The notes under the pieces were generated by a model, which was not told where the DNA came from, ran no database searches, and saw nothing but the letters and a program-made list of their open reading frames with translations. From IMG/VR virus record IMGVR_UViG_3300028914_000059, positions 96,001-160,000 of that record: a stretch of 64,000 bases of DNA; one strand, given 5' to 3'. This DNA comes from a virus (lineage: Duplodnaviria > Caudoviricetes). The position numbers and the translations under genes were made by a program. Each line of letters starts with the position of its first letter. Within the stretch, counting starts at the first letter, position 1. Shown one piece after another: positions 19,203-59,936 of the stretch.

Positions 19203-19415
19203 GTCCTGGCAGCCTAATGGGCAGGCGGCCATAAGCAGTCCACTATTTTTATCCATCCATTTGAAGCTCCATCTATATTGATTAAAACTTTAGTGGATTA
19301 GCAGGAAGATGTCAGTTCGAATCTGACATGCTCCACATCGGGGCTATAGACTAACTGGCAAGTCGTCCTACTTGCGTGCTTATGGTGAAAGCTGGTTCGA
19401 TACCAGTCCAGGACT
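19203..19415 (+). ncRNA. Nested anticodon-less double tRNA-like RNA no. 1
   Basis: Outer acceptor GTCCTGG/CCAGGAC; 10-bp helix GCCATAAGCA/TGCTTATGGT; inner permuted T-arm, acceptor hairpin, D-arm. Confidence 0.75.
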
Positions 19416-19430
19416 TTCTTAATAATTTTC

Positions 19431-19515
19431 GGGTAGGTGCCGGAGTGGTTAATCGGAGCGGACTGTAAATCCGCTGGTCTAACGGTCTACGGTGGTTCGA
19501 ATCCACCCCTGCCCA
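19431..19515 (+). tRNA. tRNA-Tyr(GTA)
   Basis: GGGTAGG/CCTGCCC, GCGGA-CT GTA AA-TCCGC, long variable arm. Confidence 0.92.
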
Positions 19516-19581
19516 TTTGATGGAGGGAAAAGGATACTACAAAGGCTAAGTTTGGAGTATCCTGGAACCTACATCAACAAA

Positions 19582-19729
19582 GAACCAGTAGCTCAAGTGG
19601 ATAGAGTATCCATGGAATCAGGAAGCAACGTGAGTTCGAATCTCACTGTCGTTGGTAACAAAACGACATGGCCAAGCGGCGAGGCACCTGTCGATTGGGA
19701 GGTTCTGGGTTCGAACCCCAGCTGGTTCA
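19582..19729 (+). ncRNA. Nested anticodon-less double tRNA-like RNA no. 2
   Basis: Outer acceptor GAACCAG/CTGGTTC; inner acceptor hairpin TGTCGTT/AACGACA; two D arms and two T arms. Confidence 0.75.
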
Positions 19730-19879
19730 ATGGTTATTTCTGGATGTGTCAAAGTGATACCCCTGTGTTCGATAGGATGCATACATCGGCATGGGTAGTA
19801 TAGCAGAAGACACAGGTTGCTGCAGCAACTACGTAGAGCCATAGTGCTCTTTGGGTAAAACCCACCAGGATAATCACCT

Positions 19880-19963
19880 GGAGGAATGTCCGAGTGGTCG
19901 ATGGTGAGAGTTTGCTAAACTCTTGGATCAAAAGTCCCGCAGGTTCGAATCCTGCTTCCTCCG
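19880..19963 (+). tRNA. tRNA-Ser(GCT)
   Basis: GGAGGAA/TTCCTCC, G73, AGAGT-TT GCT AA-ACTCT, variable arm. Confidence 0.9.
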
Positions 19964-20079
19964 ATGATTATTGTTTGAGCAGTGTGCACTATGACAACAG
20001 CGGCGAAGTGTCAGGCTGAGACGTCAGCATTGTCCCAGTAGCCGGCATGAGTCATACATTGGCTGTTCATGCAATATGA

Positions 20080-20175
20080 GGACGACAGACCGAGTTGGAG
20101 AACGGGGAGGCTATTTAAGCCTCTGCTCATTTGGTAGATGAGCTATAGTGTGGTTCGAATCCACACTGTCGTCCT
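20080..20175 (+). tRNA. Atypical long-variable-arm tRNA, anticodon loop non-canonical
   Basis: GGACGACA/TGTCGTCC acceptor, GAGGC-TATTTAA-GCCTC, 8-bp variable arm, GTGTGG-TTCGAAT-CCACAC. Confidence 0.6.
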
Positions 20176-20462
20176 TGACGGGTACAGCGGTACAGCCTAG
20201 GCCCTACACTAATGGATAAGAGTGCGCACTCTTGAGTGTATTATGGCCGGACGTAGAGTGGTTATCCTTCCCAATGAAAACGTCCCCTTGAGATTTTCGA
20301 CGGTTTGCTGGATGTGCCGGCCAGCATCATTTCCAACGCGGAACCCTGATCAGATTGCGTAAGTACGAAATGCGTTCACACAGAAAGAACACCGTTGGCT
20401 GGGTGTATGAGGTAGCGGTTGGCGCTACGTCTCGTGCCCAGCCTTCCTGCCCTGCAGGGATT

Positions 20463-20518
20463 AGACCTCCACGCGGGAGCTTAAGCCTTGTAAGCACCGT
20501 ACCATGTGGAGGCCGCTA
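20463..20518 (+). repeat. Conserved RNA hairpin, copy 1
   Basis: AGACCTCCACGCGGGA-stem-AGCCTTG-stem-CCGTACCATGTGGAGGCCGCTA; second copy at 21934. Confidence 0.75.
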
Positions 20519-20519
20519 T

Positions 20520-20603
20520 GGGGCGGTAGTTGTAATGGTAGAACGTGCAGATAGATAATTCCGCGGTTGTCTGCAAGGTCGTGGTTCGATTCCACGTCGC
20601 CCA
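20520..20603 (+). ncRNA. tRNA-like RNA with extended anticodon arm
   Basis: D and T arms normal; 9-bp TGCAGATAG/TTGTCTGCA stem with 12-nt loop. Confidence 0.7.
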
Positions 20604-20625
20604 TTTTCTGAAAAGGAGAATTACT

Positions 20626-21255
20626 ATGCCTAAACTTTGTGCAAAAATTGGCGGAGAAACATATAAGTTTGGTTTTAACGGGGGGGTACTTCAAGAAAAA
20701 ACTTTAAACCAAACTGTAAATGATGAAGCCACTGCTTACTTTATAGAGGCTTATAAGGTAACTAGTCATAATCCATGGCAAGCCATGAGTTATACTATAG
20801 CAAAAGATTTAAAGTATAATTGTCCTTGTAAATGTTACTTTAATGACTCAATGCTTATATGGACAGCTGGATGGAACAGAGACTTCTTTATTAGTGATAA
20901 AAATGTAAGCAATACGGTGAGCGAATATAGAGTCTATATAAAAATACCGAAGTTTATTGAAAACTGGGGGAGGCCTGATGCTGACACCTCTTTTATGCTT
21001 AGTGAAATATACTCCAGATGTGACAGGAATATAATATGTTCAACAGATGGTGATCCCATGCATGAGTTAGATATAGGTGATGATCATATAGCTAGAAGCT
21101 TACTGACAGACTGGACTAATTATATATTTGATGGTGACAGGGATTATTACATAGCATTTGTGATAGAGTTAGATACTACTCACTCCAACATTCACCTGTT
21201 TGTACCATCTTTTAAAGCGACATTTTACAGATATACAGGAAACTATATAGCATAA
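20626..21255 (+). CDS. Hypothetical protein, tandem paralogue A
   Basis: AAGGAG RBS, MPKLCAKIGGETYK...; highly similar to 21281..21886. Confidence 0.8.
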   Translation: MPKLCAKIGGETYKFGFNGGVLQEKTLNQTVNDEATAYFIEAYKVTSHNPWQAMSYTIAKDLKYNCPCKCYFNDSMLIWTAGWNRDFFISDKNVSNTVSEYRVYIKIPKFIENWGRPDADTSFMLSEIYSRCDRNIICSTDGDPMHELDIGDDHIARSLLTDWTNYIFDGDRDYYIAFVIELDTTHSNIHLFVPSFKATFYRYTGNYIA

Positions 21256-21280
21256 TCTATATAAAGGTAGGAGAATTACT

Positions 21281-21886
21281 GTGCCTAAACTTTGTGCAAA
21301 AATTGGTGGAGAAACATATAAGCTTGATTTTAACAGTGGGGTACTTCAGGAAAAAACTTTAAACCCAACTGTAAATGATGAAGCCACTGCTTACTTTATA
21401 AGGGCTTGGGGGGCGACTACTGGTCGGACTGTAGCAGAAGATTTAAAGTATAATTGTCCTTGTAAATGTTACTTTAATGACTCAATGCTTATATGGACAG
21501 CTGGATGGAACCAAAACTTCTTTATTAGTAATAAAAAGGTAAGCGATACGGCGCTAAAATATGAAGTTTGGATAAAAATACCTAAGTTTATTGAAAACTG
21601 GGGGAAACCTGATGATAGCACCTCTTTCATGTTTAGTGGAATATATTCCAGATATAATAGGAATATAATATGTTCAACAGATGGTGACCCTTTGCATGAG
21701 CTAGACATGGGTGATGACCATATAGAGAGAAGCTTAATGATAGACTGGACTAATTTTTTTGATGGAGACCATGATTATTACATACTATTCAGAGTAGAGT
21801 TAGATGGCACTCACTCCAACATTTACCTGTTTGTGCCATCTTTTAAAGTGACCTTTTATAGATATACAGGAACCTATCTAGCATAA
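21281..21886 (+). CDS. Hypothetical protein, tandem paralogue B
   Basis: GTG start with the same GGAGAATTACT context; same 3' flank GCATAATCTATATAAAGGTAGGAG. Confidence 0.8.
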   Translation: MPKLCAKIGGETYKLDFNSGVLQEKTLNPTVNDEATAYFIRAWGATTGRTVAEDLKYNCPCKCYFNDSMLIWTAGWNQNFFISNKKVSDTALKYEVWIKIPKFIENWGKPDDSTSFMFSGIYSRYNRNIICSTDGDPLHELDMGDDHIERSLMIDWTNFFDGDHDYYILFRVELDGTHSNIYLFVPSFKVTFYRYTGTYLA

Positions 21887-21933
21887 TCTATATAAAGGTA
21901 GGAGTTCAGCCTTGGAAATAAAGACTGCCAATC

Positions 21934-21986
21934 AGACCTCCACGCGGGAATCCAGCCTTGGGATCCGTACCATGTGGAGGCCGCTA
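21934..21986 (+). repeat. Conserved RNA hairpin, copy 2
   Basis: Same as 20463..20518 with compensatory inner stem ATCC/GGAT. Confidence 0.75.
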
Positions 21987-22141
21987 AATTAAAAGTGCCA
22001 AACGGGAAAGGCACTCTAAACATGGACACATCAACCATGGACCCGGTACCGGGTCCCAATGAAGCACCGCCAGAAATGGCTACGGCACTGGTTACAAAGC
22101 CGTAGTACCTGCCTCTCGAGCGCATGAGACAGGAACAAACT

Positions 22142-22292
22142 GAAGTAGAGGTAGGCTGGTAGCCCAGCTGGTTAAGGCACCCGGAGGAAAGTTAGCGGGG
22201 GATTATATTCCGTCACGCATTAGCTTTCTGCAAGGGAGATCAGGGGTTCGAGTCCCTTCCAGGCGACAAGACCGAAAGGTCCCCTCTACTTC
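22142..22292 (+). ncRNA. tRNA-like domain with extended anticodon arm enclosed in an outer helix
   Basis: GAAGTAGAGG/CCTCTACTTC closing helix, D arm, T arm AGGGG-TTCGAGT-CCCTT, GACC-GAAA-GGTC tetraloop. Confidence 0.65.
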
Positions 22293-22298
22293 TCTTTA

Positions 22299-22371
22299 GC
22301 CCCAATCGTCTAATATAATAGGATAACCGGCTTCTAGCCGGAGATGCGGTGAGAGTCCGCAAGGGGCGCCA
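22299..22371 (+). tRNA. tRNA-Arg(TCT), divergent or pseudo
   Basis: CCGG-CT TCT AG-CCGG, ends CCA; acceptor has two A:A mismatches, T-loop TGAGAGT, D-loop lacks GG. Confidence 0.55.
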
Positions 22372-22372
22372 A

Positions 22373-22466
22373 GACGATTTATCCGAATTGGAAATAGGGG
22401 GAGGCTGTGAGCCTCCGGATATATGTTAATGTATATCCTGTGGTGGTTCGATTCCACCAGTCGTCA
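22373..22466 (+). tRNA. Atypical long-variable-arm tRNA with GTG anticodon
   Basis: GACGATT/AGTCGTC, A73, GGAGG-CT GTG AG-CCTCC, long variable arm, no G-1. Confidence 0.6.
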
Positions 22467-22470
22467 ATCT

Positions 22471-22541
22471 GGGTCGGTAACCAAGCGGTTAGGTGCTGCT
22501 CTGCAAAAGCAGCTAGATCAGTTCGACTCTGATCCGGCCCT
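22471..22541 (+). tRNA. tRNA-Cys(GCA)
   Basis: GGGTCGG/CCGGCCC, U73, CTGCT-CT GCA AA-AGCAG. Confidence 0.9.
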
Positions 22542-22598
22542 CTCATTTATTCATGAGATAAAATTTCTTTTCGTTGGCCAGCGCTGGCCAACATTTTT

Positions 22599-22760
22599 GA
22601 CTGCCTCGTCTAACGGATAAGACACAGGATGGGTTACGTAAAGGGTCATTTCTATCTCCTTAGTTTGATCTCAGAGTCTCATTCCTTCCTTTCATTAACG
22701 GTGTTTTTAGTCAAGTCAAGTTGCTCCGCCTGAATGCCGGTTCGAATCCGGCGGCAGTCT
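22599..22760 (+). ncRNA. tRNA scaffold with about 100-nt insert replacing the anticodon loop
   Basis: Perfect acceptor GACTGCC/GGCAGTC, D stem GTCT/AGAC, T arm GCCGG-TTCGAAT-CCGGC, CAGG/CCTG stem enclosing 22629-22728. Confidence 0.8.
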
Positions 22761-22895
22761 CTGGAGCCCGTATGAAATATGATGGGTTACCAATAAGGCA
22801 TGCTTCCGCCTGTAATGGGGCAGAGTATGTTTTAATTCGATGTCCTCCTTTTAAAAATTGTCATCGAGCATGCTGGGAAACTGGTATGCTCTTAC

Positions 22896-22979
22896 GCCCG
22901 GTTGGCGAAACTGGCAGACGCATATGATTCAGGTTCATATGTCCGCAAGGACGTGCGGGTTCGACCCCCGTGCCGGGTA
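22896..22979 (+). tRNA. tRNA-Leu(CAG)
   Basis: GCCCGGT/GCCGGGT, A73, TATGA-TT CAG GT-TCATA, variable arm GTCC-GCAA-GGAC. Confidence 0.9.
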
Positions 22980-23096
22980 CTGTTGTTTGTAGTAATCATT
23001 AAAAAACTCTATGCCTTGGTGCAGCTGTAATATTTTATTGCCGCTGCACTTTTTTTATCTGTACATTTACGCTATAATATTAAAGAGGAGAGCACT

Positions 23097-23375
23097 ATGA
23101 GCAGAAGTTATAAGAAGACATCATACAGTGGTGATACTAATGATAAGGCTTATAAGAAGGTTTCTAATAAAAGGATTCGCAGTTACCCGGAAATTCCGGA
23201 TGGCTCGTTCTTTAAGAAGATAATGTGCTCCTGGTTCATTAAAGACTACTGCTCATATATGACTGAGAAGGAGTTTATGGAGGATTGGTATGATCCTGAG
23301 TCGTACATGAGGAAGTTGTGGCCAACCTATGAAGAAGCCCACCAGAACTATATGAAATATTACAGGAGAAAATGA
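23097..23375 (+). CDS. Conserved-type basic hypothetical protein (MSRSYKK...)
   Basis: 92 aa, GAGGAG RBS. Confidence 0.75.
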   Translation: MSRSYKKTSYSGDTNDKAYKKVSNKRIRSYPEIPDGSFFKKIMCSWFIKDYCSYMTEKEFMEDWYDPESYMRKLWPTYEEAHQNYMKYYRRK

Positions 23376-23378
23376 CCG

Positions 23379-23732
23379 TTGAAAGACATTATAATTGATG
23401 ATGTTCCAAATGCTGTAACCGTGGCTATAAATACCCTGGCTGATTATTGCAGAAGTATTCAGGGTGATAAGTATAATCCGTTCAAATGTAGAAAATGTCC
23501 TCTGTACGGCAGGAACACAGATAAGAGAGCAACAGCAGTAAGTGGTGACTATGAGGATTGCTTCTTCAGCATGTATCATAACAGTGTTCGAAGATGGGAT
23601 AATATACTAAGAGGCAAGCATCCTGACAGTGGGCATTCAGCATTCGAAGTGATGACATCATCCATGTCTCCCGACGATAAGGTTCCTGAAGACAGAGGCA
23701 GCTTTCAGATTAAAGATAAACCCTTAGAATAG
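23379..23732 (+). CDS. Hypothetical Cys-containing protein
   Basis: 117 aa, CxxCP motif. Confidence 0.6.
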   Translation: MKDIIIDDVPNAVTVAINTLADYCRSIQGDKYNPFKCRKCPLYGRNTDKRATAVSGDYEDCFFSMYHNSVRRWDNILRGKHPDSGHSAFEVMTSSMSPDDKVPEDRGSFQIKDKPLE

Positions 23733-24002
23733 GTATAAGTAATCTGGAAGGAAGGTGACGTTAAATGGCAGAAGAAATAATTCTTTTGACAGTTAACGGG
23801 ATCCTGGAAGACTTGCTTGTCCAGGGTTCCATGGTTGTTTATGCCTTAGCGTTAAGCTATGGCGTAATCAACTATAATAAATAAAAAATCCGGCTCTAAA
23901 TGGGCCGGATTTTTTTACCTGTCAGTTCTGTAGAATTAGGTATAAGATCTATAGTTATTCCAGGACTAGTTTCCTGGAAATTTAAGACTAAGGAGATTTT
24001 AT

Positions 24003-30276: not shown

Positions 30277-31101
30277 TTATTTGTTCTTTTTATTTTTCTT
30301 AGTGTTTCCGCTGTCTGACTGACTTGCGCCGGATCCTCTGAGTGAGCCTAGACCTAAGCCACCAAGTCCACCAGCAAGAGCTCCTCCGGCACCAAGAGCA
30401 TACCCTTTATTTTCAAGACCGGATATAAGCTGTGATAAGTTATCATTAATGCCCGAAGTGCTTCCCTGAAGTTCTTGTACGATACTTGAAAGATCTTTAA
30501 TGCGCTTTTGTTTATTAGTATAATTTAACAATGCTTCATTTATGTTGTTAGCTTTTGCACCAGCGCCACCATTACCTGTAAGGTTTAATGTATATGCTAA
30601 GGTAGCGTCAGATGAGTCTTTAGATAAAGCATCACGAAGTTTACCTAATCCAGTATCTGTTTGAGCTAAACTGTTATTAATTCTATCCTGCATTACCGGA
30701 ACATTTTCAATAGACTGCTTGAAAGCCTTTGCCTGGTCTACTGCAGTATCAATTCCCTGTTTTGTCTTAGCACCAGCTGCTGACAGTCCTTCCTTGGCTT
30801 TAGCACCAGCTGCTGATAATCCTTCCTTGGCTTTAGCACCAGCTGCTGATAATCCTTCCTTGGCTTTAGCTATATACGGGGCCAATGCTTCAGAAGTTTG
30901 TGCTCCAAAGTTTCTTAAACTTTCCCCAGCTGCTGTACCAAAGTTTCTTAAGCCGTCACCCGCCTGTGCCCCCAAAGCCCTTAAAGTTTCCATAAGGTCT
31001 GCCTGCTTTTGCAGTTCTGCCTGTTTTTCCATTTCTGAATTTATCATGACAAGCTTAAGCTGAGCTGCTCTGGCTATATCATTAGCTAATTTATTAATCA
31101 T
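30277..31101 (-). CDS. KxA-leader protein with 11-aa repeats and C-terminal glycine zipper
   Basis: MINKLANDIARAAQ...EKQAELQKQA; three AKAKEGLSAAG repeats (33-bp repeats about 30767-30870). Confidence 0.8.
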   Translation of the reverse strand: MINKLANDIARAAQLKLVMINSEMEKQAELQKQADLMETLRALGAQAGDGLRNFGTAAGESLRNFGAQTSEALAPYIAKAKEGLSAAGAKAKEGLSAAGAKAKEGLSAAGAKTKQGIDTAVDQAKAFKQSIENVPVMQDRINNSLAQTDTGLGKLRDALSKDSSDATLAYTLNLTGNGGAGAKANNINEALLNYTNKQKRIKDLSSIVQELQGSTSGINDNLSQLISGLENKGYALGAGGALAGGLGGLGLGSLRGSGASQSDSGNTKKNKKNK

Positions 31102-31783: not shown

Positions 31784-31892
31784 CAACCCATCAGGTATAA
31801 GTATAATGTTCAAAGGAAACTTAGATTAAGCTTGCTGCTGGCTGTGCCGGGCAACTTAACGATGAAGCCCTTTAGAACAAATGGTGATTAAT

Positions 31893-32033
31893 ATGGTAAA
31901 AAATATCGTTAAAGTTATTATTGGATTTGCTGCTATGGTCATTTGCTACAAGAAGTATACAGACCTTACAGACTGGACTGTTGAAGCTTTTCTAGAACTG
32001 ATCAATAACAAAAAAGCAGACGATGCTGAATAA
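31893..32033 (+). CDS. Small membrane protein (46 aa)
   Basis: GGTGATTAAT-ATG context downstream of GGTATAAG promoter and leader motif. Confidence 0.6.
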   Translation: MVKNIVKVIIGFAAMVICYKKYTDLTDWTVEAFLELINNKKADDAE

Positions 32034-32139
32034 GAATTTTTGGGCCTAGCAGAGCCCAGGTACTTCAGGTGCCAAATCTGTTTTTTACCTGTTAATTTTA
32101 AATGCTTGTACAGGTATAAGTATGAGCGGAGGTGATATT

Positions 32140-32430
32140 ATGTCAGCATTGTTGTATGTCCAGCAGGTAATACTGCTTGTTTTGTTCTCTTTTTCATTCC
32201 TCCTTCTTATGGTTGAAATAGTACCAGAAAGAAGCTTGGAACTTGTCTCTGCTCTCGTAGATTTTATTATCTTCATTAGCAGCTGGGGAGAATATGATGG
32301 CTATAAGGACTTTAGAAACAAGAAAGTTGCTGAACGTCCAGAGCTAGAAGAAGAACTTCCCGAAAGCGTCATAGAATTCATTCTATTTTATGAAGATCAT
32401 GACGACGACAAGAAAGGAGATAAAAAATAG
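32140..32430 (+). CDS. Hypothetical membrane protein
   Basis: GGAGGTG RBS before MSALLYV; hydrophobic N-half. Confidence 0.65.
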   Translation: MSALLYVQQVILLVLFSFSFLLLMVEIVPERSLELVSALVDFIIFISSWGEYDGYKDFRNKKVAERPELEEELPESVIEFILFYEDHDDDKKGDKK

Positions 32431-32495
32431 AAAAGGAACCTTCAGGTTCTTTTTTACCTGTTAATTTTTAACTTTGTATAGGTATAAGTATATTA

Positions 32496-32761
32496 GTAAG
32501 GATGAATGTATCTATCTAGATACGGTATCCGGCCGAATGAGGGGAGTAGAAACATCCCGCAGTTATGATGAATAACTGCTGGAGACCCAAGTTATGGTCA
32601 TCTTGGTATTGCGTAAATAGGGGTTAATAATGGCCGGGCCCCGTTCCGCCTACTCGGATGTCCAAGATCCCACCCGCTACGGATCTCTCGAAAGAGGGAT
32701 TAAAATGGTGCGACCAAGACAGCCAAGGCTCTATCGAAAGATATCCGGAGGGCTGTTTTTT
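32496..32761 (+). ncRNA. Unidentified structured RNA with own promoter and terminator
   Basis: GGTATAAG at 32481, multiple helices and crossing pairings, ends ACAGCC/GGCTGT + T-run; no ORF. Confidence 0.6.
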
Positions 32762-32881
32762 ACCTATTAATTTTTTACATACACACGGGTATAAGTACAG
32801 TATCAAGAGATCAATGATCTGACATTTCTAGCGTGCTAGGGTGCAGACGTTAAATTAGGTCTCTGATACAAGGTGATTAAT

Positions 32882-33292
32882 ATGTCAGGACTCAGTAGAA
32901 CAGAACGTTTTCAACAGTTGTTTAATTTGTTAAATGAACTACAGTTGGTGCCTGGTTCAGAATTTTTTGCTTTCTTGAAGCGGGAAACTCATTCACCCGC
33001 AAGTAACGCCTGCTGGCTGAAGAAAGACAACTTCTGCTACCATATGGTAGTTGATAATCTTCTGGCTCATGAAGGATGGGAACCTGGATGCAGTGTTAGT
33101 TATGGCTATCTAGATCACGACAGAGGTACTTCTCACTTGGTCAATACTTCTGGTTCTTTGAAGTTTAATCCTAAAGATGCTGAAGAAGAAGAACTCGAAG
33201 GTTACGTTAATGCTGACGATGCAGAAGCCGCTAGAACACTTATGGGGCTGTTGCTAGATTATGAAGCAAAATTCAAAATCAGCAAGCTTTGA
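32882..33292 (+). CDS. Hypothetical protein
   Basis: AAGGTGATTAAT-ATG start context. Confidence 0.75.
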   Translation: MSGLSRTERFQQLFNLLNELQLVPGSEFFAFLKRETHSPASNACWLKKDNFCYHMVVDNLLAHEGWEPGCSVSYGYLDHDRGTSHLVNTSGSLKFNPKDAEEEELEGYVNADDAEAARTLMGLLLDYEAKFKISKL

Positions 33293-33301
33293 GTGGTAGT
33301 C

Positions 33302-33331
33302 AAAAAGAGCCTTTTCTCAAGGCTCTTTTTT
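33302..33331. terminator. Bidirectional terminator
   Basis: AAAAAGAGCCTT/AAGGCTCTTTTT. Confidence 0.8.
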
Positions 33332-33362
33332 ATCTTATATTTTTAATAATTATATAATGTTG

Positions 33363-33797
33363 TTAATCATCAATTTCAGAGTATGCTACTACCATTGGAA
33401 TTCTACGCATTTTGTCAGCAGTTCTTTTATTGTAGGCATCGTACTCTTTTTTATTTGGTGATAATCCACCCGCCATTAAACCTAAATTTGTAGTTAATAG
33501 TCCAGAAGCTACCCAATCTTTGGGGTTTATAAATCTACCGGTAGCATGTCCGAGCATGCCCATTCCAGCACCCCTGAGTATAGCTGGTAAGTATAATCTG
33601 TCTTCAGGATCGTTTGCTGCATGTTGGCCCAGGGCCCCCATTAACCCACCTGCAATTCCACCCACACTCAGAGCTGCTAATAGTTCTGGCAGTCTTGAGG
33701 GTGTTTCTATTCCAGCTATTTTTGTCGTTGTTGTGCTTAGAGCAGCTAGTTTAATCTGAGCAGCCCGTGCTATATCGTTTGCTAATTTATCTATCAT
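33363..33797 (-). CDS. KxA-leader glycine-zipper protein
   Basis: MIDKLANDIARAAQIKLA...TKIA|G; GxxxG helices. Confidence 0.75.
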   Translation of the reverse strand: MIDKLANDIARAAQIKLAALSTTTTKIAGIETPSRLPELLAALSVGGIAGGLMGALGQHAANDPEDRLYLPAILRGAGMGMLGHATGRFINPKDWVASGLLTTNLGLMAGGLSPNKKEYDAYNKRTADKMRRIPMVVAYSEIDD

Positions 33798-33967
33798 AGG
33801 ATACAATCCTTTCAGGTATATTTCATATTATATAATATCTCTTAATTTACTTAATATCAAGCCTCTGCACAGGTATAAGTACTCTGATAGAGGACAATAG
33901 ATCTATAATTTCTCGCTGTGCCTGAGTTATAGACGATAAATTAGTCCTTATCAAAAAGGTGATTAAT

Positions 33968-34441
33968 ATGAAGTATAACGTTAAGAAAGAATTAAACAAT
34001 TTCGTCAACTTTACTGGTCGCATGGCTACAGATCTTCCAGCATGTGTTCGTCGTGACTTTTTTAAGTCTCAGGGCGAAAACACCTTTACTGTAGATTTAA
34101 ATAGTGACGAACTTAAAAGACTTTCTTCTAGAATTGGTGTTCAGCTAATTCAGCTTGTAATTCATTTCAACCTCAAGGAAGAAATCGAGCTTATAGCTGA
34201 AGAAAAAGGAAGGGGCATGGGGCAGCCCAGGCTCGTCACTGTTGTAAGCAACAAGTTCGAACCAGGTTTAACCTGGGAAGATGAACATGAAGAAGCTATC
34301 CTTCCTGCTTTGATGGAAGTCAGACAGATATTAGCTGACAGAGTTATCTCTCTAACTAAGAGAGCTCTAAAGCTCTATCCGGAAGATGAAAAAGAGCAGG
34401 AATCCTCTGAAGGCGATGCCTTTTCAGTTTTCAAAAAGTAA
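33968..34441 (+). CDS. Hypothetical protein
   Basis: AAGGTGATTAAT-ATG start context. Confidence 0.75.
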   Translation: MKYNVKKELNNFVNFTGRMATDLPACVRRDFFKSQGENTFTVDLNSDELKRLSSRIGVQLIQLVIHFNLKEEIELIAEEKGRGMGQPRLVTVVSNKFEPGLTWEDEHEEAILPALMEVRQILADRVISLTKRALKLYPEDEKEQESSEGDAFSVFKK

Positions 34442-34515
34442 GTAACTCCTCCAGCTCTTCCCCTCATTCGGGGATGAGCTGGTTGCCGATTTAATTTTTA
34501 ACTAAGGAGTACAAA

Positions 34516-34842
34516 ATGACTACTGATAATAACACTCAGGCAGCTCAGCTGCTGGCTGCTGCAAAAGCCCAGGGAATAAAATTTGGCACTGTGGCAAAAG
34601 AACTGGGTGTCCATAGTTATATAATAACGAACTGGTTTACAAGCAGGTCTAGAATTCCAAATGACATGCTTGTCAAACTTAAATATTTCCTTGCTAAGTT
34701 TGGCATACTGTTTAAAGAGCCGGAAGACTGTCTAGAACAGCTTCAGGTAGACGAAGAGATGCTACTGTCTTTTTATCGTAAGCTGGATTTAAAACATAAA
34801 TCAATGATGTTAAGTCTAGCCGAAGATTTTAGTAAGCTTTAA
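34516..34842 (+). CDS. XRE/Cro-type HTH protein
   Basis: GIKFGTVAKELGVHSYIITNW...IP; C-terminal 'EEMLLSFYRKLD' typical of repressors. Confidence 0.75.
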   Translation: MTTDNNTQAAQLLAAAKAQGIKFGTVAKELGVHSYIITNWFTSRSRIPNDMLVKLKYFLAKFGILFKEPEDCLEQLQVDEEMLLSFYRKLDLKHKSMMLSLAEDFSKL

Positions 34843-35012
34843 TGCTTTTGATAACTACCGGGGTCTCCCCGGTATTTTTTTATCTGGCACTTAATTTCAT
34901 TTCCTTATTTGTTATAAGATATATGCAATGAAGATATAATACCTCTAAGACTTTTGCTACAGGGCTGTGCCCGGCGGAGTTACTAAAGAAGGTGTTGTAT
35001 CTGGAGATTAAT

Positions 35013-35486
35013 ATGACAAATTCTACTACTACTACTGAACTCAACCCCGTTACTACTTCTGAAAAAATACCTGGATTCTTTACACTTAAAAACGGCCAAA
35101 AAGTCGTTCAGACTTCTGGACATCCATGCGCTTTCAATGACGGCACTGTATTTAGACCTGACGAAATAGAATCTAAAGCTATTAAGGCCTATTTTTCTTT
35201 TCTGACCGTTGAACGCAGCTTCCAGGAAGTCCCCTCTCCTTTTCCAGGCATACGTTACACTCACAGTTCTCAAAAATTGTCAGAAGCAACTGTAAATAAA
35301 CTGCATGAACTTGTAAAGGCTAATCCCGATACTATGTTCTTAGTTCCGTTTATGGTTGAAAGTGCTTTGTGGGAAATGGGTATTCGTGACAAGTTCCCGA
35401 CTCTTGCTGGTGGCAATGCTACACCTGAAACTTCCAGGGAAACCCCAGATAAGAAGATTTGGAACTTGCAGAATATGGCTTACTAA
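35013..35486 (+). CDS. Hypothetical protein
   Basis: GGAGATTAAT-ATG start context. Confidence 0.75.
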   Translation: MTNSTTTTELNPVTTSEKIPGFFTLKNGQKVVQTSGHPCAFNDGTVFRPDEIESKAIKAYFSFLTVERSFQEVPSPFPGIRYTHSSQKLSEATVNKLHELVKANPDTMFLVPFMVESALWEMGIRDKFPTLAGGNATPETSRETPDKKIWNLQNMAY

Positions 35487-35869
35487 TTTCGTTTCCTATC
35501 GGTTGTGGGTCATCCGTCGAAACCCTCCCGCCTTTGGCGGTGGACTTAAATTTTAATAGGAGATAAATGATATGAAAGATATATTGGACCAGGTACTTTA
35601 CTTGGTCGATTCGGCTAACGACAAGCTTAGCCATGAGATGACCGACACGATCTTCTGTCTGGTTGAAGACAAGCTTTGTCAGGCTTCTAGACTAATACAG
35701 CAGCTAAGAAATGAAGCTGGTGAATAGTTAACTCCTCTGGTTCGCCCAGAGTTTTTTTACCTGTAAATTTTATAAATGTCTATAGGTATAAGTAGTATGT
35801 AAAGAGGCAGCTAACTGGCAATAAGTTGTACCGCCAATCAAAAGCTAGCCCCAATCAAAGGTGATTAGT

Positions 35870-36202
35870 ATGCTAATTTGCTTTATTAAGTGTGAAATAA
35901 TGGAACAGCAGGAAAAGTTAACTATTAGACTTAGAAGAAGAACCGCTAAGGTTCAGGAATTAGCTCAGCCATTACTGGCTGCTTTAGACCGGACGGTTGT
36001 TCTAATAAAAGGTGGTAGGTCTGTGCTAGACGAAGATCCGCGCAAGAACCTTCGTCCATGGCTGAGATATGGCCTCCAGTTGATTTCTAAAATTAAGCTA
36101 GTTGACAAGTTAACAAATACTACTCACAAGCTTTCCGCAGGGAAATTGCCGTATGAACTGTTCCAGCTCCCGGCAGCTCCTGTGAGAGCTCCACACTATT
36201 AA
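35870..36202 (+). CDS. Hypothetical basic protein
   Basis: AAGGTGATTAGT-ATG context. Confidence 0.6.
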   Translation: MLICFIKCEIMEQQEKLTIRLRRRTAKVQELAQPLLAALDRTVVLIKGGRSVLDEDPRKNLRPWLRYGLQLISKIKLVDKLTNTTHKLSAGKLPYELFQLPAAPVRAPHY

Positions 36203-36302
36203 TATCCTCTAGCCGCCCACGCTACACTACTTAGCTATGCTAAGTTATTTTAAGGTGTATGCCTGGGCTAAATTTTTACCTCACAGTAGGTATAAGATAT
36301 CC

Positions 36303-36650
36303 GATGGTTGAAACATACTATATATGCGCCAGCTCAAAGCCACAGGTTGAGTTGGGGCGAGAATTAGCTTGTGGCGCTACTGTAGAAGCAGGTTACCGAA
36401 AGCTACAGATAGCAACCTAGGGTAACTGCCGGCACAAAATCCAGAAACGGCATAAAAATGGCATAGTGTATAGGGTTCACGCTCCCATGTGTAACCCTAT
36501 TGCTATGGTAGAGGTGAAATCAACGAAGTTTCGCTGACCAGTTGGGTTGATTGAGTGATGCGCGACAGACTGAGTGAATTCTCAAAAGGCGGAATTCAGT
36601 TTTTTCAGATCTAGGCTAGCTCCGCTCGGGCTGGTGGTGAAACTTCCTCT
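36303..36650 (+). ncRNA. Unidentified multi-pseudoknot structured RNA
   Basis: Downstream of GGTATAAG 36289; two H-type pseudoknots and long hairpins; precedes tRNA. Confidence 0.6.
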
Positions 36651-36663
36651 TGATTTTTATTTG

Positions 36664-36736
36664 AGCGGGATGGAGCAGTTGGTAGCTCGGGAGTCTCATA
36701 AGCTCCAGGTCGCAGGTTCGAATCCTGCTCCCGCCA
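36664..36736 (+). tRNA. tRNA-Met(CAT), initiator-like
   Basis: A1:C72 mismatch, GGAGCAGTTGGTAGCTCG D arm as in tRNA-fMet, CT CAT AA loop; anticodon stem GGAGT/GCTCC. Confidence 0.85.
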
Positions 36737-36893
36737 ATGTTCATACAACGTGCTGGGTTATTAAACTCCTTTCCCAGCACGTATTTTCTCCTTTTTTGAA
36801 ATGTCGGGACGGCTGATCACCTAATCCTGGCGTTTCTTTTTTACCTATTAATAGGTATAAGTCTCTTATCTTATCTAAGGAGGAATAGTCACC

Positions 36894-38582: not shown

Positions 38583-38652
38583 AAATAATACAGCTATCAG
38601 ATGACAAATCTGGTAGCTGTATTTTCTTTAATTAAGGAGGCAAACAAATACT
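38581..38652 (-). ncRNA. Putative anti-Shine-Dalgarno small RNA
   Basis: TTGACG-N18-TATATA promoter (38659-38688), GTATTTGTTTGCCTCCTTAAT, then terminator hairpin AATACAGCTA/TAGCTGTATT. Confidence 0.45.
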
Positions 38653-55442: not shown

Positions 55443-55463
55443 CAAGTATTCGGTATAAGTTAT

Positions 55464-55560
55464 ATGTGCAGGAAAGATTAACCATCTTTTCTGCACATTC
55501 TGTTTTACTCTTTTAGGGAGAAAAGATTATGAATTTCTCATAAGCTTTCTCCCTTTTTTT
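55464..55560 (+). ncRNA. Putative small RNA (hairpin - single strand - terminator)
   Basis: GGTATAAG 55452; 15-bp hairpin; U/C-rich linker; terminator + T-run; no ORF. Confidence 0.55.
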
Positions 55561-55702
55561 AACTTCGAATTTTAAGATATTTTTTAGCTGGTAATGGTAT
55601 AAGATTTGTATTATTATATAGCCTGGCCTCAGGATTTTCCGGACATTTAAGGAGGCTGTCCACACTAACCGGAGACCAGGTAATCCAACTAAGGAGATTA
55701 TA

Positions 55703-55975
55703 ATGTTTGTGAAAACCGAGGAGCCACCAAAAAAGTGCTCCAGATGTGATAAGTATGAAGCATTGTTTCACGATGATACATACTATGGATTCAAATGCAA
55801 CTCCCTGACTTCAGGGCGTGGCACTTTAGACAAAAATCTTGGTAGATTGAAAGAATGCCCGATGATTGCCGGTAGGGCCTACAGCAAGGATGGCCCCAGA
55901 CCTAAGAAGGAAGATTTGGAATGGCATAAGCTCAGACCTACCAGAAGTCCATACAAGCCGAGGAGGCCGAGATGA
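55703..55975 (+). CDS. Cys-rich hypothetical protein
   Basis: P..CxxC...C...CP family, also 57044..57319. Confidence 0.7.
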   Translation: MFVKTEEPPKKCSRCDKYEALFHDDTYYGFKCNSLTSGRGTLDKNLGRLKECPMIAGRAYSKDGPRPKKEDLEWHKLRPTRSPYKPRRPR

Positions 55976-56571
55976 AAAAGAAACTTGTTAAAATCTATGT
56001 AGTCATAGATGTGCAGAATGACTATATAGCTGAAAGCACAGCTGCGGAACATGCTTATAAATCTATATTGCGCAGGCTTAACAGAATTGAAGAAAAGCGA
56101 AAAGCTGATACCTATGTAGTGCTGGTTAATACTGCAGCTTTTCCGGAAGAGCCTGAAGACGAAGATGCAGAAGTTATAATGCCTAAGTGTGCATATGGCA
56201 CAGAAGGCCAGGATATCCCGAAAGCCCTCGACAGAGTTATCAGGAACTTCAATTCCAATCAGAGGTTATTGAATATAATAACCAAGATGACTCATGGAAG
56301 TCCTATGGTAGCAGCCACAGTAAAGGATCTCTGCACTGACAAGGATGCTTCTGTGGAAATAGAACTCATGGGTCTGAACGCAGAGACTTCTCTGGTTGCC
56401 AATGCAATAATGTTAGGTGCAGCTTTCCCATGGGTGCCCATATACGTAGAAAATCACAGAATATGTGGCAAGGATCCGGAACATCTGGAAGCAGCAATTA
56501 AAGTTATGGAAAGCTGTGGTGTTCAGTGGCGTGATGAAGTGGAGAGTGAAGAATGTCCAAACGAGGAATAA
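55972..56571 (+). CDS. Isochorismatase/nicotinamidase-fold protein, catalytic residues altered
   Basis: VVIDVQNDY, C.YGTEG, K, GLNAETSLVANA. Confidence 0.75.
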   Translation: MKKKLVKIYVVIDVQNDYIAESTAAEHAYKSILRRLNRIEEKRKADTYVVLVNTAAFPEEPEDEDAEVIMPKCAYGTEGQDIPKALDRVIRNFNSNQRLLNIITKMTHGSPMVAATVKDLCTDKDASVEIELMGLNAETSLVANAIMLGAAFPWVPIYVENHRICGKDPEHLEAAIKVMESCGVQWRDEVESEECPNEE

Positions 56572-57047
56572 TCACAGATATTGATGCCTTCAGCAGGAAG
56601 CTGAGACATATTATCAGCATTCACAAGGAAAAGACCGGTAAGTCTGCATTTCAGATGTCTAAGGACATCTATATGGATCCGGCCTACTTTAACAGGCTCA
56701 AGAACGGTAAAGTCAGGCCGGGCAGCGAAATAATCAAGAGACTGGCTACTTACTTCGGAGTTTCCGAAGATGTATTTCTGGAAAAGGAGAATGAATCCAT
56801 GGGTAGAAATGTTGTGTTGAGCGAAGCTGACCTGAAAACTCTGGTTCAGAACTTCAGAGAAGCTCTAAGAAAGAAGCAGGACAAGTTCACTTCCCCATAC
56901 TCCAAAGATCCGGATCATCCTCTGGAATTCGTAACAGGTTACTGCTATTATCTGCTTAAGTATCTTGAAAGTCAGTATGGTATCAAGCTGCTTACAGCAG
57001 AAGATGACGATATGTACAAGAAAAGGATTGGAGCTGATAAACAGTGA
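56553..57047 (+). CDS. XRE-family HTH protein
   Basis: SAFQMSKDI...YFNRLKNGKVRP...LATYFGVS. Confidence 0.8.
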   Translation: MSKRGIITDIDAFSRKLRHIISIHKEKTGKSAFQMSKDIYMDPAYFNRLKNGKVRPGSEIIKRLATYFGVSEDVFLEKENESMGRNVVLSEADLKTLVQNFREALRKKQDKFTSPYSKDPDHPLEFVTGYCYYLLKYLESQYGIKLLTAEDDDMYKKRIGADKQ

Positions 57048-57319
57048 CTAGAGTCAAACAGATATATGTTCATCCTTTTCCGGCCAACTGTAAGTGCTGT
57101 CCCTTTTATGAAGATGAAGCCTACTTCTTTGGCCTTCTGAAAACAGGAAGATACTTCTGTCACGCACAGGATCATGAGTTTGCTTTCAGATATACTCCAA
57201 ATGCGGATTACGATTGGCAGATAGGTCATCCTGAATATGATGATTCAAGGTTGCCCAGTTGTCCATTGAAAAAGTGGGACTGGAAATTATTAAAAGAAAG
57301 GGAGGTAGAACAACAATGA
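57044..57319 (+). CDS. Cys-rich hypothetical protein
   Basis: PANCKCCPF...C...RLPSCPL. Confidence 0.7.
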   Translation: MTRVKQIYVHPFPANCKCCPFYEDEAYFFGLLKTGRYFCHAQDHEFAFRYTPNADYDWQIGHPEYDDSRLPSCPLKKWDWKLLKEREVEQQ

Positions 57320-57528
57320 AACGCTGGGTAACAGTATTGTGTTATAATAAAAACGGTCAACCAGCATTCGAGCGCACAAATGTGTTTGCAGCAGATGACT
57401 ATGACGATGCTTGTCACAAAGGCGAAGCACTGCTGGATGAAAACTATCCATTGGCAGTCAGAGACGGTTATAATAACTGGACTCTGGATGTAGATGCTTT
57501 GATGACAGAAGCAGCCAGAATAGGTTGA
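57316..57528 (+). CDS. Hypothetical protein
   Basis: GGAGG RBS, ATGA overlap. Confidence 0.6.
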   Translation: MKRWVTVLCYNKNGQPAFERTNVFAADDYDDACHKGEALLDENYPLAVRDGYNNWTLDVDALMTEAARIG

Positions 57529-57581
57529 TAGGTGGTGGGGAGAGTTATTTTCTCCCCATTATTTTTAATTGGAGATATAAT

Positions 57582-58193
57582 ATGGAAAAAGAGAATTCTG
57601 TAACTAAGGTGTTAAAACCTAGTGGCTGGTGTATAACACCTGTGCATGATAATGACTACATTGATTGCTTACGGGTTACTGTAACAGATGTTATGGGACT
57701 TAAGTATTTTAAGAAAGCCTGCGAAGCAACTTCCGGTAAACCTATTCCTGAAGACAGAGTACTTCCCCTGCTCAGGAAAATGTATAAAGCTGAGCATTCT
57801 CCTATAAGGGAACGGAAGTTCTGGGTAGAGGTAAAGAACTGCCCAACTTTTGTAGCTAACCACTTCAGAACACATAATGTGGGCGTGGAACATTTCCACC
57901 TGAGTCACAGGAGTGATAGAACAGGAGTTAAAGATCAGGAAAGCAACAGACTTACTCCCACGTCCTTCAGTTTCATGTGTAATGCTCAGAGCCTTATCAA
58001 TATGGCCAGAAAAAGGTTGTGCCATAAAGCCAGCCCGGAAACCAGAGATGTAATGTGGCTGATAAAGCAATGCCTGCTGGATGGAGTAGATTTCCCTCTT
58101 GGAGAATTGCTGGTACCGGAGTGTGACTATCGTAAAGGATGTAATGAATTGAAATCCTGTGGTAGATATGATAATAATGGAGGCAGAAATTAA
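57582..58193 (+). CDS. thyX: Flavin-dependent thymidylate synthase
   Basis: AEHSPIRE, FVANHFRTH, SHRSDR, NAQSLIN..RKRLC.KAS.ETR, LVPEC.Y..GC.E...CG. Confidence 0.85.
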   Translation: MEKENSVTKVLKPSGWCITPVHDNDYIDCLRVTVTDVMGLKYFKKACEATSGKPIPEDRVLPLLRKMYKAEHSPIRERKFWVEVKNCPTFVANHFRTHNVGVEHFHLSHRSDRTGVKDQESNRLTPTSFSFMCNAQSLINMARKRLCHKASPETRDVMWLIKQCLLDGVDFPLGELLVPECDYRKGCNELKSCGRYDNNGGRN

Positions 58194-58572
58194 TGGAAAC
58201 CGTGCTTAGTAATTTCGTGAATATGTTGAACAATAACATGCAATCTTATATAACATATCTGTATGTGCATGAACTTTGTGAGACTTTCGTAATACTGATG
58301 TTTGTAGGGCCGTTAATGTATTTTGCATGCAAACTGCTGAACAAAGCAATTAATGAGTTTAAATAAGGAGTTTATTATGGATAGCTATGAAAAACTGGAA
58401 GGCAGAATTAAGGATGTTATTCGCAGTATAGATGTTATGCTGGGTGATAACATCAACTACGTAGGAGAAGGTGGCAATCCAGGCTATCCTACACCTTATG
58501 AAGCAGGTGCCATATGTGCCTGCAGAAATATTCAACGAATGCTTAAACAGGTATTAGAAGGAGACACAACAA

Positions 58573-58842
58573 ATGCAGGCAAAGATAGTCAAAAGACCGA
58601 TATCAGGTCCTAGTCAGATAAGCACGGACGGATTCATCTGTCCGTATTGTCATTCTATCGAGGGAGAATATCCTGAAGATTTCGGACACGGACGTAAGTT
58701 TACAGAACTCGACACCGTCGGAACAGCTACACATAAGTGTTCCTGCTGCGGCGGTTCTTATCAGGTCATCATGGCCAGAACTATGACTATACATACATAT
58801 GGCGTGGAGGAAGGCGATGGGAAGACTGAAAATATACGCTAA
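58573..58842 (+). CDS. Zinc-ribbon hypothetical protein
   Basis: CPYC...CSCC. Confidence 0.65.
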   Translation: MQAKIVKRPISGPSQISTDGFICPYCHSIEGEYPEDFGHGRKFTELDTVGTATHKCSCCGGSYQVIMARTMTIHTYGVEEGDGKTENIR

Positions 58843-59479
58843 TCGTGTTCGGTGCAAAAAGTGTGGCGAAGTTATAGAAAGCAGATCAGTACATGACTTT
58901 AAACAGTGTCGCTGTGGAGCTATCTATACAGATGGCGGACTCGATTATATCCGCAGAGGCGGTGACCCTGACCAGATGGAAGACTACAGTCTGACTACCG
59001 AAGGTAAGAAATTAGGTGCTTACCCATCAGAGTACTGGTATGATTTTAAACCTGTGCATACATGGGAGTACAAGGTGAAACTACAGCCTGGAAAAAATGA
59101 CTGTCACCCATTTACTGATGAGGGCGAAAACCCTTATCTGATGGTAAAGATAGAGTCTTACGACAGGGACGCAATGCCTCGGGCTGTGGAATTGAAGTCC
59201 ATAATATTAGATAACATCAGATGCGAAGATGGGAAATATCATGAGACTAAAAAAGAGAACTGGAAAATGGAAAAACAGTTCAAGAATGATATCAGAGTAT
59301 ATCCCACATGTCATTACCCAGCCAGAATAAGAGTCTGGGGAGCTGATGACGAATCATACACAGCAACAAAACCCTGTCCTGATGAATGTCTGGTTATGCT
59401 ATATAATATGAGAGACATAGTAGCAGAAGGCGGGAATCTCTGGGATTATCTCATAGACAATATGGTACACACTAACTAA
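58817..59479 (+). CDS. Protein with N-terminal Cys/His zinc domain
   Basis: NRVRCKKCGEVIESRSVHDFKQCRCGAIYTDGGLDYIRRGG, a common phage domain. Confidence 0.75.
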   Translation: MGRLKIYANRVRCKKCGEVIESRSVHDFKQCRCGAIYTDGGLDYIRRGGDPDQMEDYSLTTEGKKLGAYPSEYWYDFKPVHTWEYKVKLQPGKNDCHPFTDEGENPYLMVKIESYDRDAMPRAVELKSIILDNIRCEDGKYHETKKENWKMEKQFKNDIRVYPTCHYPARIRVWGADDESYTATKPCPDECLVMLYNMRDIVAEGGNLWDYLIDNMVHTN

Positions 59480-59551
59480 AGTTAAGGCCCTCCTTTCGGT
59501 ATAAGTTATCTGTAGGCAAACAGATACACTTTATTTAAAGGAGGGGCTATT

Positions 59552-59794
59552 ATGAGACGCAGCCCAGAAGTGTATCCATTCAAGCTCAGCGATATGGGAA
59601 TGCCCTTGGAGGGCAAGCCCAAAGAAATTGTTGAGCTATTTATTAGCTTTGCCAACAAAATAGGTAAAGCTATAGAGAGGGAGTTGACAGAATCAGCTCC
59701 TTCTAAGAAAGAGTTCTTTCAGAATTGGGAAAGAGCCCGTAAATGGTATAGAGAAGCCAGGCGAGCTAAAAAGTTTTTGAAAGAACATTACTGA
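59552..59794 (+). CDS. Hypothetical protein
   Basis: AAGGAGG RBS, GGTATAAG promoter 59498. Confidence 0.7.
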   Translation: MRRSPEVYPFKLSDMGMPLEGKPKEIVELFISFANKIGKAIERELTESAPSKKEFFQNWERARKWYREARRAKKFLKEHY

Positions 59795-59804
59795 TGCATG
59801 CCTG

Positions 59805-59936
59805 GGGAGCAGCTCCTTTAGAGTGACCTCTACAAGCGGTCGGAACTCTGGACAAGGAACTGCTCCCTTGTCATATTTAATCACCTTCATTAGAGGGGGC
59901 CAATAGAGATATCTCTATCGGTCTCCTCTCTTTTTA
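59805..59936 (+). ncRNA. Putative 3'-UTR small RNA with anti-initiation-region linker
   Basis: Long hairpin GGGAGCAG/CTGCTCCC, linker TTGTCATATTTAATCACCTTCATT, terminator AGAGGGGGCC/GGTCTCCTCT + T-run. Confidence 0.6.

Follow-up and report, generated by a model that had tools for sequence, protein, structure and literature searches.

Intergenic segments that resemble translation start regions

The DNA examined here, referred to as the window, is a 64,000-nucleotide (nt) stretch of the genome of an uncultured tailed phage (IMGVR_UViG_3300028914_000059). The genome is a single 180,070-bp contig, and the window corresponds to bases 96001 to 160000; positions below are window positions unless they are given as genome positions. 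The gene map consists of long minus-strand structural blocks and blocks of small plus-strand genes, and phage genes carry strong Shine-Dalgarno (SD) sites such as AAGGAGG. Two tRNA arrays are located at 19.1 to 20.2 kb and 22.2 to 23.0 kb, and a tRNA-Met gene stands alone at 36664. A preliminary description of the window listed eight non-coding segments and proposed that they belong to one family of antisense RNAs, some of them built on tRNA bodies, that silence translation by pairing with ribosome binding sites and start codons. We examined these segments, with a focus on three putative plus-strand RNAs that we call S7, S8, and E3 (Table 1).

The sequences at all eight sites read exactly as quoted in that description, and all eight segments were outside the credible genes of the gene map. 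The antisense open reading frames (ORFs) were not conserved. Two structural claims were borne out in part. The segments had been described as unpaired, and the mean probability of being unpaired was indeed high at 22843 (0.90), 59868 (0.81), and 36758 (0.73); for the remaining segments, it was 0.58, 0.55, 0.50, and 0.45. The reverse complement of each segment was said to read as a start region, and five of the reverse complements do contain an SD sequence and an ATG. An SD sequence alone was present at 22843, 36758, and 38631. Since the SD sequence at 38631 is on the plus strand, this segment would need an unsupported minus-strand transcript to serve as an anti-start guide.

Counts in the intergenic DNA of the region did not place the motif class above chance. 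An antisense SD pentamer combined with an ATG occurred 5 times, versus 2.5 ± 1.75 times in dinucleotide shuffles (p = 0.15). Anti-SD pentamers occurred 35 times in co-directional intergenic DNA, versus 23 ± 5.3 times (p = 0.02), and 18 versus 12.8 times outside the tRNA arrays (p = 0.11).

The reverse complement of each segment was also compared with all 186 start regions of the genome, using shuffles that held the SD sequence and the ATG fixed. As a stricter null, the real start regions were scored against one another; scores of at least 13, 15, and 17 were reached in 37%, 16%, and 3% of cases, respectively, and scores of at least 20 all came from paralogues. The genome contains 1695 inverted exact repeats of at least 12 nt, so bare 12- to 13-mer matches mean little.

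As shown in Table 1, the antisense matches that stood out against the shuffles belonged to S7, to S8, and to a part of E3 that we call E3a. When the 262 SD-plus-ATG look-alikes in the genome were ranked by similarity to real start regions, S7 was first, E3a was third, and S8 was approximately 13th. The S7 score was above that of every non-paralogous pair of real start regions, and the E3a and S8 scores were not. Thus, the reverse complements of S7, S8, and E3a are as start-site-like as real start sites. For the other five segments, the proposed silencer function found no support: the p values ranged from 0.42 to 0.77, and one of these segments turned out to copy a start region in the sense orientation.

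The eight segments are heterogeneous, and there is no evidence that they form one family, as the generic motif was not enriched and the loop at 19246 had no significant similarity to the insert of the element at 22599. The other five are ordinary sites, namely, a terminator, an orphan sense-strand SD sequence, a loop that changes rapidly, and pyrimidine tracts that have no specific partner. In our view, the eight-part system as originally written should not be taken further, and the finding that five of the sites are ordinary matters just as much as the three candidates.

TABLE 1 Features of the S7, S8, and E3 units and of the other flagged segments, with the outcome of the comparison to the 186 start regions
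Feature	Position	Strand	Start-region comparison	Description
S7 RNA unit	55452..55561	+		About 100 nt; no credible ORF
S7 promoter motif GGTATAAG	55452-55459	+		6 nt ahead of the S7 hairpin
S7 hairpin 1	55466-55496	+		
S7 linker	55497-55514	+		
S7 terminator	55515-55554 plus T-run	+		
S7 seed	55496..55523	+	Score 17; p ≤ 0.0025 (segment at 55496)	Antisense to the leader of a 274-amino-acid (aa) gene at genome 3756-4580, outside the window
S8 RNA unit	59796..59935	+		In the 3' region of gene 59552-59794; from structure and alignment
S8 hairpin 1	59804-59867	+		Base lengthened by AUG 59796-98/CAU 59872-74
S8 linker UUGUCAUAUUUAAUCACCUUCAUU	59868..59891 (to 59892 in the unit map)	+	Score 13; p = 0.035	Unpaired; reverse complement is a consensus-grade SD plus AUG
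S8 terminator hairpin with T-run	59893-59929	+		
Candidate S8 target GGTGATTAATATG	31883..31895	+		Start region of gene 31893
Candidate S8 target AAGGTGATTAATATG	32870..32884	+		Start region of gene 32882
Candidate S8 target AAGGTGATTAATATG	33956..33970	+		Start region of gene 33968
Candidate S8 target AAGGTGATTAGTATG	35858..35872	+		Start region of gene 35870
E3	22599..22761	+		tRNA-shaped; between tRNA-Cys (22471) and tRNA-Leu (22896)
E3a	22638..22662	+	Score 15; p = 0.02 (segment at 22643)	Complementary at 22/26 positions, 13 of them in a row, to the start of a minus-strand gene that lies outside the window (genome 87886-94077; 2063 aa)
E3b CUCAUUCCUUCCUUUCAUU	22678..22696	+	p = 0.77	Pyrimidine-rich; conserved in the relative L001
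Spacer with three hairpins	22762..22895	+		From E3 to tRNA-Leu; 90-96% identical in relatives
Anti-SD tract in spacer	22843-22861	+	p = 0.47	
E1	19204..19414	+	p = 0.42 (loop 19246-19288)	tRNA-like element, 211 nt; between tRNA-Met and tRNA-Tyr; contains the flagged loop
Intrinsic terminator after tRNA-Met	36740..36798	+	p = 0.48 (segment at 36758)	Stem GUGCUGGG/CCCAGCAC plus T-tract
Orphan sense-strand SD AUUAAGGAGGCAAACAAAU	38631..38650	+	p = 0.045, direct orientation	Behind a terminator; no start codon

S7, a candidate promoter-to-terminator unit

S7 is a compact unit in which a promoter motif, a hairpin, a linker, and a terminator follow one another. The motif, GGTATAAG, has approximately 30 intergenic copies in the genome, often with TTTTTTACCT about 20 nt upstream, and the copies are always on the plus strand and ahead of plus-strand genes. 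In the window, they are located at 18851, 23732, 23939, 31794-36854, 38710, 43039, 49991, 55452, 55596, 59498, and 59950, and additional copies are present in other parts of the genome. The motif is absent from the minus-strand structural genes and is probably the consensus of an early or middle promoter of the phage.

The S7 sequence from 55498 to 55523 is antisense at 23/26 positions to the whole 31-nt leader (SD sequence and spacer) of the 274-aa gene. The Smith-Waterman (SW) score of the seed was reached by 0/400 of the shuffles, and blastn-short placed the seed on the leader with an E value of 0.005. The 274-aa gene is located between genes for a PD-(D/E)XK nuclease and an RNA ligase. These three genes (genome 2696-5809; L024) form one plus-strand module, in which the ligase was assigned to phrog_968 (E = 5e-55). 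The presence of an RNA ligase beside a large repertoire of tRNAs and tRNA-like elements hints at tRNA repair.

Conservation was assessed in relatives from ENA and Logan assemblies, with approximately 80 to 97% protein identity; L004, from the Joint Genome Institute (JGI), is the same phage (99.995% identity). In the case of S7, the 5' arm of the terminator showed purine transitions that kept the pairing. The terminator loop (within 55515-55554) contains a conserved micro-ORF with its own SD sequence (GGGAG-N8-AUG AAU UUC UCA UAA). A metagenome contig search found no relatives of the gene at 55972. A model in which S7 or S8 pairs in cis with start regions of its own neighboring genes was considered and set aside because the duplexes were weak.

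S8, a putative hairpin-linker-terminator RNA with a conserved linker

S8 was aligned across six lineages. The first 21 nt of its linker, UUGUCAUAUUUAAUCACCUUC (59868-59888), were near-invariant in the window and L028 to L033, with a 1-nt deletion in L031 alone. The flanking structures varied around this conserved, single-stranded seed. RNAalifold placed 44 pairs in the alignment, 14 of which showed compensatory changes; in hairpin 1, for example, GGGGAGCAG/CUGCUCCC changed to GGGAGGCAG/CUGCCUCC. In L031, the interior of hairpin 1 was replaced, and the terminator hairpin had a different sequence in three lineages. Several G-U pairs in the hairpins are valid only on the plus strand. The minus-strand ORFs of S8 had 14, 8, and 7 codons, and a Glu-to-Arg change in the encoded peptide corresponded exactly to a compensated change in the stem. 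This result indicated that the RNA structure, and not a peptide, was under selection. An attenuator model for S8 was rejected because the linker was conserved and the sequence of the terminator was not.

The preliminary description reported that two segments match start regions inside the window, and this claim was confirmed for the S8 linker. The sequence GGTGATTA[AG]TATG occurred at only four real starts (31883, 32872, 33958, and 35860) and in one inverted copy, which was in S8. The best partners of the S8 seed were the start regions of genes 32882, 33968, 35013, 35870, and 31893. Of the 10 best duplex partners, 5 came from this gene cluster. These starts are paralogous, so the matches are not independent. 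A 19-mer from the linker was also present in 25 unrelated contigs, and in the flanks that were read, it was the reverse complement of a gene start, an indication of how closely the mirror image of the linker resembles a start. The scan for this 19-mer yielded unrelated contigs only, and no homologous RNAs were found among the contigs matched.

S8 has a terminator and lacks an exact copy of the GGTATAAG motif, so it may be derived from the 3' untranslated region of the gene upstream.

E3, a putative tRNA-shaped RNA with an insert

E3 has the shape of a tRNA, and we took its ends to be those that this shape implies. The acceptor stem (GACUGCC/GGCAGUC) pairs at 7/7 positions, the D arm contains the expected GG, and a 5-bp T stem closes a UUCGAAU loop. 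The acceptor, D, and T arms are perfect, and approximately 100 nt replace the anticodon arm. The canonical T-loop and the D-loop GG are read on the plus strand. The Rfam tRNA model (RF00005) had no match at E ≤ 10 over 22599-22761 or over E1 (19204-19414), and ARAGORN called E3 only with the intron option (a 91-nt "intron") and did not call E1 even with this option, which indicates that neither element is a canonical tRNA.

The insert contains E3a, the stretch that is antisense to the start region of the 2063-aa gene. The product of this gene has nine InlB-B-repeat domains and a tail-like C terminus. The gene is one of two giant minus-strand genes of near-equal length; the other one (genome 44347-50535) encodes 2062 aa and has a 15-nt start region in common with the small gene at 58377. 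In the minimum-free-energy fold, the anti-SD sequence UCUCCU of E3a is located in a hexaloop, which is the only open part of the segment at 22643-22663.

Comparison with the relative L018 indicated that the scaffold and the insert core were under constraint. The two halves of the tRNA scaffold were 100% identical, the insert core was 93.5% identical, and the remainder of the insert was 78% identical. Around E3, the following spacer was 96% identical, tRNA-Leu was 97.6% identical, the next gene was 77% identical, and the spacer after tRNA-Leu was 50% identical. Across relatives, the E3a core was 93 to 98% conserved. The antisense strand of E3 contains a 32-codon ORF, and a 1-nt deletion shifted its frame in L009, L016, and L018.

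In the relative L001, the same genomic position is occupied by a different tRNA frame, with acceptor sequence GUCCAUA, different D and T arms, and a 17-bp stem. This element holds the core of the E3 insert, AUCUCCUUnGnUUGAU...GUCUCAUUCCUU (z = 8.2). Judged from these alignments, selection acts on E3, as it does on S8.

A second pyrimidine-rich stretch of the insert, E3b, pairs with AGGAUGGG in the minimum-free-energy fold. No specific target of E3b was found among the 186 start regions, and the mRNA of the giant gene, which was searched as well, contained no second site for it. A viral contig search detected no E1 or E3 frames and no relative of the 209-aa protein encoded in the array, and the pattern ATCTCCTT..GTCTCATTCCTT had a single match, in an unrelated coding region.

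In large phages, the tRNA clusters often include tRNA look-alikes that have no anticodon. The record of phage T5 (AY543070) annotates such an RNA, RNA1 (30501-30644), as a "tRNA-like stable RNA with unknown functions" inside the tRNA cluster. The fold that we computed for RNA1 shows an acceptor, a D arm, and a T arm, with a folded insert in place of the anticodon arm, and E3 and the L001 element have the same build. Like RNA1, E3 is located in a tRNA cluster and on the same strand as the cluster, it keeps the three arms, and its anticodon arm is replaced; E1 is also in a cluster. The likeness is one of build and was drawn without a sequence comparison, and the RNA1 frame differs in that it looks class II (long variable arm), whereas that of E3 does not. 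The stable RNAs of T4 are presumably of the same kind. Since RNA1 has no known function, it offers no precedent for an antisense role of E3.

Another phage RNA that is comparable to E3 is the C4 antisense RNA of P1 and P7 (CI RNA in P4). The loops of C4 pair with mRNA and mask the ribosome binding site. C4 has been listed as an RNase P substrate (PMC11143913, citing Hartmann et al. 1995). Both C4 and E3 are phage encoded, and E3, like C4, would be an antisense RNA cut from its precursor by RNase P. In contrast to E3, C4 is not a full tRNA body, and it acts in lysogenic immunity on a neighboring operon; the candidate target of E3 is a late structural gene at a distance of 25 kb. A cmscan search with Rfam models found no C4 and no family except tRNAs in the window at the gathering threshold or in 18900-23150 at E ≤ 10. 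In the engineered "tRNA scaffold," a cargo RNA takes the place of the anticodon arm, and the retained tRNA body provides processing and stability. The resemblance of E3 to this laboratory construct is only a resemblance.

A proposed role in start-site masking and its alternatives

We tentatively favor, with a confidence that falls a little short of even, the reading that S7, S8, and E3 are three separate plus-strand small RNAs that mask phage start regions. The exposed seed of each putative RNA would probably pair in trans across the SD-to-AUG interval of particular phage mRNAs, and it would repress them by blocking binding of the 30S subunit. The candidate targets of S8 are the start regions of paralogous early genes at 31.9 to 35.9 kb, and S7 would pair with the 274-aa gene at its leader. 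E3 may be cut out by RNase P and RNase Z like a tRNA, and its insert would then display the anti-SD hexaloop within a 25-nt stretch that is antisense to the start of the tail-fiber-like 2063-aa gene. The plus-strand orientation of the putative RNAs is supported by the uniform orientation of the GGTATAAG motifs and by the T-runs that follow the S7 and S8 terminators on that strand.

Masking of the SD-AUG interval by antisense RNA is a standard mechanism of small RNAs, such as the prophage RNA DicF and the Firmicute RNAs RsaE and RoxS, which have C/U-rich seeds. S7 and S8 have the textbook build of trans-acting RNAs: a 5' hairpin, a single-stranded seed (conserved in S8), and an intrinsic terminator, with putative complementarity of the seed to the SD-AUG interval. 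They differ in that they lack homology to Rfam small RNAs, come from a large, virulent-looking phage, and seem to be aimed at the phage's own genes. Given such RNAs and the annotated tRNA-like stable RNAs in the T5 tRNA cluster, the statement that no equivalent had been described was too strong. To our knowledge, few phage-encoded trans-acting RNAs are known in the strong-SD group of phages. S7 and S8 provide well-defined candidates from an uncultured phage of this type (AAGGAGG).

Several results weigh against start-site masking. The generic motif is not enriched, as noted above. The E3a and S8 scores are within the range seen between real start regions, so these two segments are as start-like as genuine starts and are not tied to one target. 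Part of E3a is paired in the folds, and the CAU of S8 is also paired; furthermore, the duplexes of S8 with its best candidates need a 1-nt bulge. The L001 insert had no match to the giant-gene starts of L025, L026, and L027, and hence guide-target covariation was not shown. In the case of S7, the relatives were near-identical across the entire spacer and were too close for its conservation to be informative about selection.

The alternative that survives best, which we consider somewhat unlikely, is that the mirrored starts are by-products, i.e., scars of inverted start cassettes or chance matches, in RNAs that are kept for other reasons. S7 and S8 would then be 3'-end, terminator, or processing elements, and E3 and E1, like T5 RNA1, would be tRNA-like stable RNAs, with a job that does not involve pairing. 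The lack of motif enrichment, the abundance of inverted repeats, and the unexceptional E3a and S8 scores fit this explanation, as does T5 RNA1, for which no function is known despite its shared build. Start cassettes do get copied in this genome, as illustrated by the segment at 38631 (identical at 18/19 positions, in direct orientation, to the start region of gene 25588) and by the 15-nt start common to two unrelated genes. However, a scar would not be expected to stay near-invariant between two changing hairpins, which is what the S8 linker does, or to survive an exchange of the tRNA frame, as seen between E3 and L001, and the S7 match exceeded all of the shuffles and all of the non-paralogous pairs of start regions.

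A second alternative, which appears quite unlikely, is a generic display of anti-SD sequences. According to this idea, exposed CUCCUU, CCUCCUUUU, and AUCACCUU mimic the 3' end of 16S rRNA and either act as a sponge for host mRNAs with SD sequences or serve as a decoy for an anti-SD factor. The best example is the tract at 22843-22861, a perfect CCUCCUUUU that is exposed, lies in a conserved spacer, and has no specific partner. In addition, the S8 linker contains AUCACCU, which we take to be as in the 16S 3' tail; its reverse complement is a consensus-type start used in many genomes; and both motifs conserved between E3 and L001 are anti-SD-like. On the other hand, anti-SD pentamers were only weakly enriched (see above), and the conservation reached well past the anti-SD sequence into the spacer and anti-AUG positions.

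A third alternative is that the segments are real ribosome binding sites and start codons of tiny minus-strand genes. The start-like reverse complements would be explained, and the gene callers used for public assemblies place a 37-aa minus-strand ORF at 19246 in every relative. We regard this explanation as very improbable and largely refuted. The E3 ORF is frameshifted in three lineages, and its 32-aa peptide is unrelated to the 18-aa peptide of L001. The S8 ORFs have 7 to 14 codons, and the amino acid change in S8 results from a compensated change in the stem. A canonical tRNA-Met lies on the strand opposite the 37-aa ORF, the intergenic promoter motifs are all on the plus strand, and the G-U pairs fit the plus strand only.

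Least probable of all is that E3 and perhaps E1 are intron-containing or decaying tRNA genes with inserts that are spliced out or meaningless: although the ARAGORN intron option returns tRNA-Ser(GCU) with a 91-nt intron for 22599-22761 and tRNA-Asp with a 74-nt intron for 19582-19729, the anticodon stem has 4 pairs only, the intron would lie at a non-canonical position (32), the 17-bp stem of the L001 homologue is continuous and has no anticodon loop, the E3 insert core is, unlike debris, more conserved than the neighboring protein gene, and we know of no splicing route for such short inserts in bacteria.

The start-masking reading of S7, S8, and E3 has an extended form, which we regard as unlikely. 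In this form, the tRNA body is a natural phage carrier for antisense regulators: E3 is excised and masks the giant-gene start, its cargo can move between tRNA frames, as in L001, and S7 and S8 complete a start-blocking network. If true, it would give a first hint of what the tRNA-like stable RNAs of T4 and T5 do. Apart from this extended form, E3 has a conserved stretch that mirrors a specific gene start, and its cargo recurs in the different frame of a relative; these features move such RNAs from the category of "unknown" to a testable idea, tRNA-framed antisense control.

Other segments and features of the tRNA arrays

The anti-SD tract at 22843-22861 is located inside the three-hairpin spacer before tRNA-Leu, and it matched none of the 186 start regions specifically; it could be a generic anti-SD element. 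The CUCCUUU motifs flagged at 36758-36798 are the loop and the T-tract of the tRNA-Met terminator.

E1 has an outer acceptor (GUCCUGG/CCAGGAC), two T arms, and crossed acceptor strands. It was 96% conserved, and the changes gathered in the 19246-19288 loop. The E1 and E3 loops were examined as one family and rejected (p = 0.25 to 0.57). E1 and a second element at 19582-19729 are "double-headed," with two D arms and two T arms each. In this build, pairing joins the first 5' acceptor strand to the last 3' strand, and a short loop closes an inner acceptor pair. The element at 19582-19729 was 93% conserved in L001 and L018, and Rfam gave only partial tRNA matches (18 to 19 bits) for the two double-headed elements.

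Two tRNAs called by ARAGORN, a 93-nt tRNA-Lys(UUU) at 20082-20174 and a 94-nt tRNA-His(GUG) at 22373-22466, have long extra arms that are unusual for these isoacceptors. The tRNA-Lys(UUU) call had no Rfam tRNA match, and both may be non-decoding tRNA look-alikes too. Another tRNA-like sequence, at 22300-22372 (GCCCC...ACCGG CUUCUAG CCGGA...GGGGCGCCA), was called by no tool; its features are a loop resembling a UCU anticodon loop, a T-loop with the odd sequence UGAGAGU, and a CCA-like end that is encoded.

The tRNA array is interrupted by tandem paralogues at 20626-21255 (209 aa) and 21281-21886 (201 aa) that are 74% identical. The L009 lineage lacks both paralogues, and L001 has one. In L001, an IS605 OrfB/TnpB-type gene (11959-13227) is located beside tRNA-Leu, directly after the tRNA array. 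At the level of the whole contig, genome positions 482-532 repeat the final 50 bases (180021-180070), which may reflect an assembly overlap or a terminal repeat.

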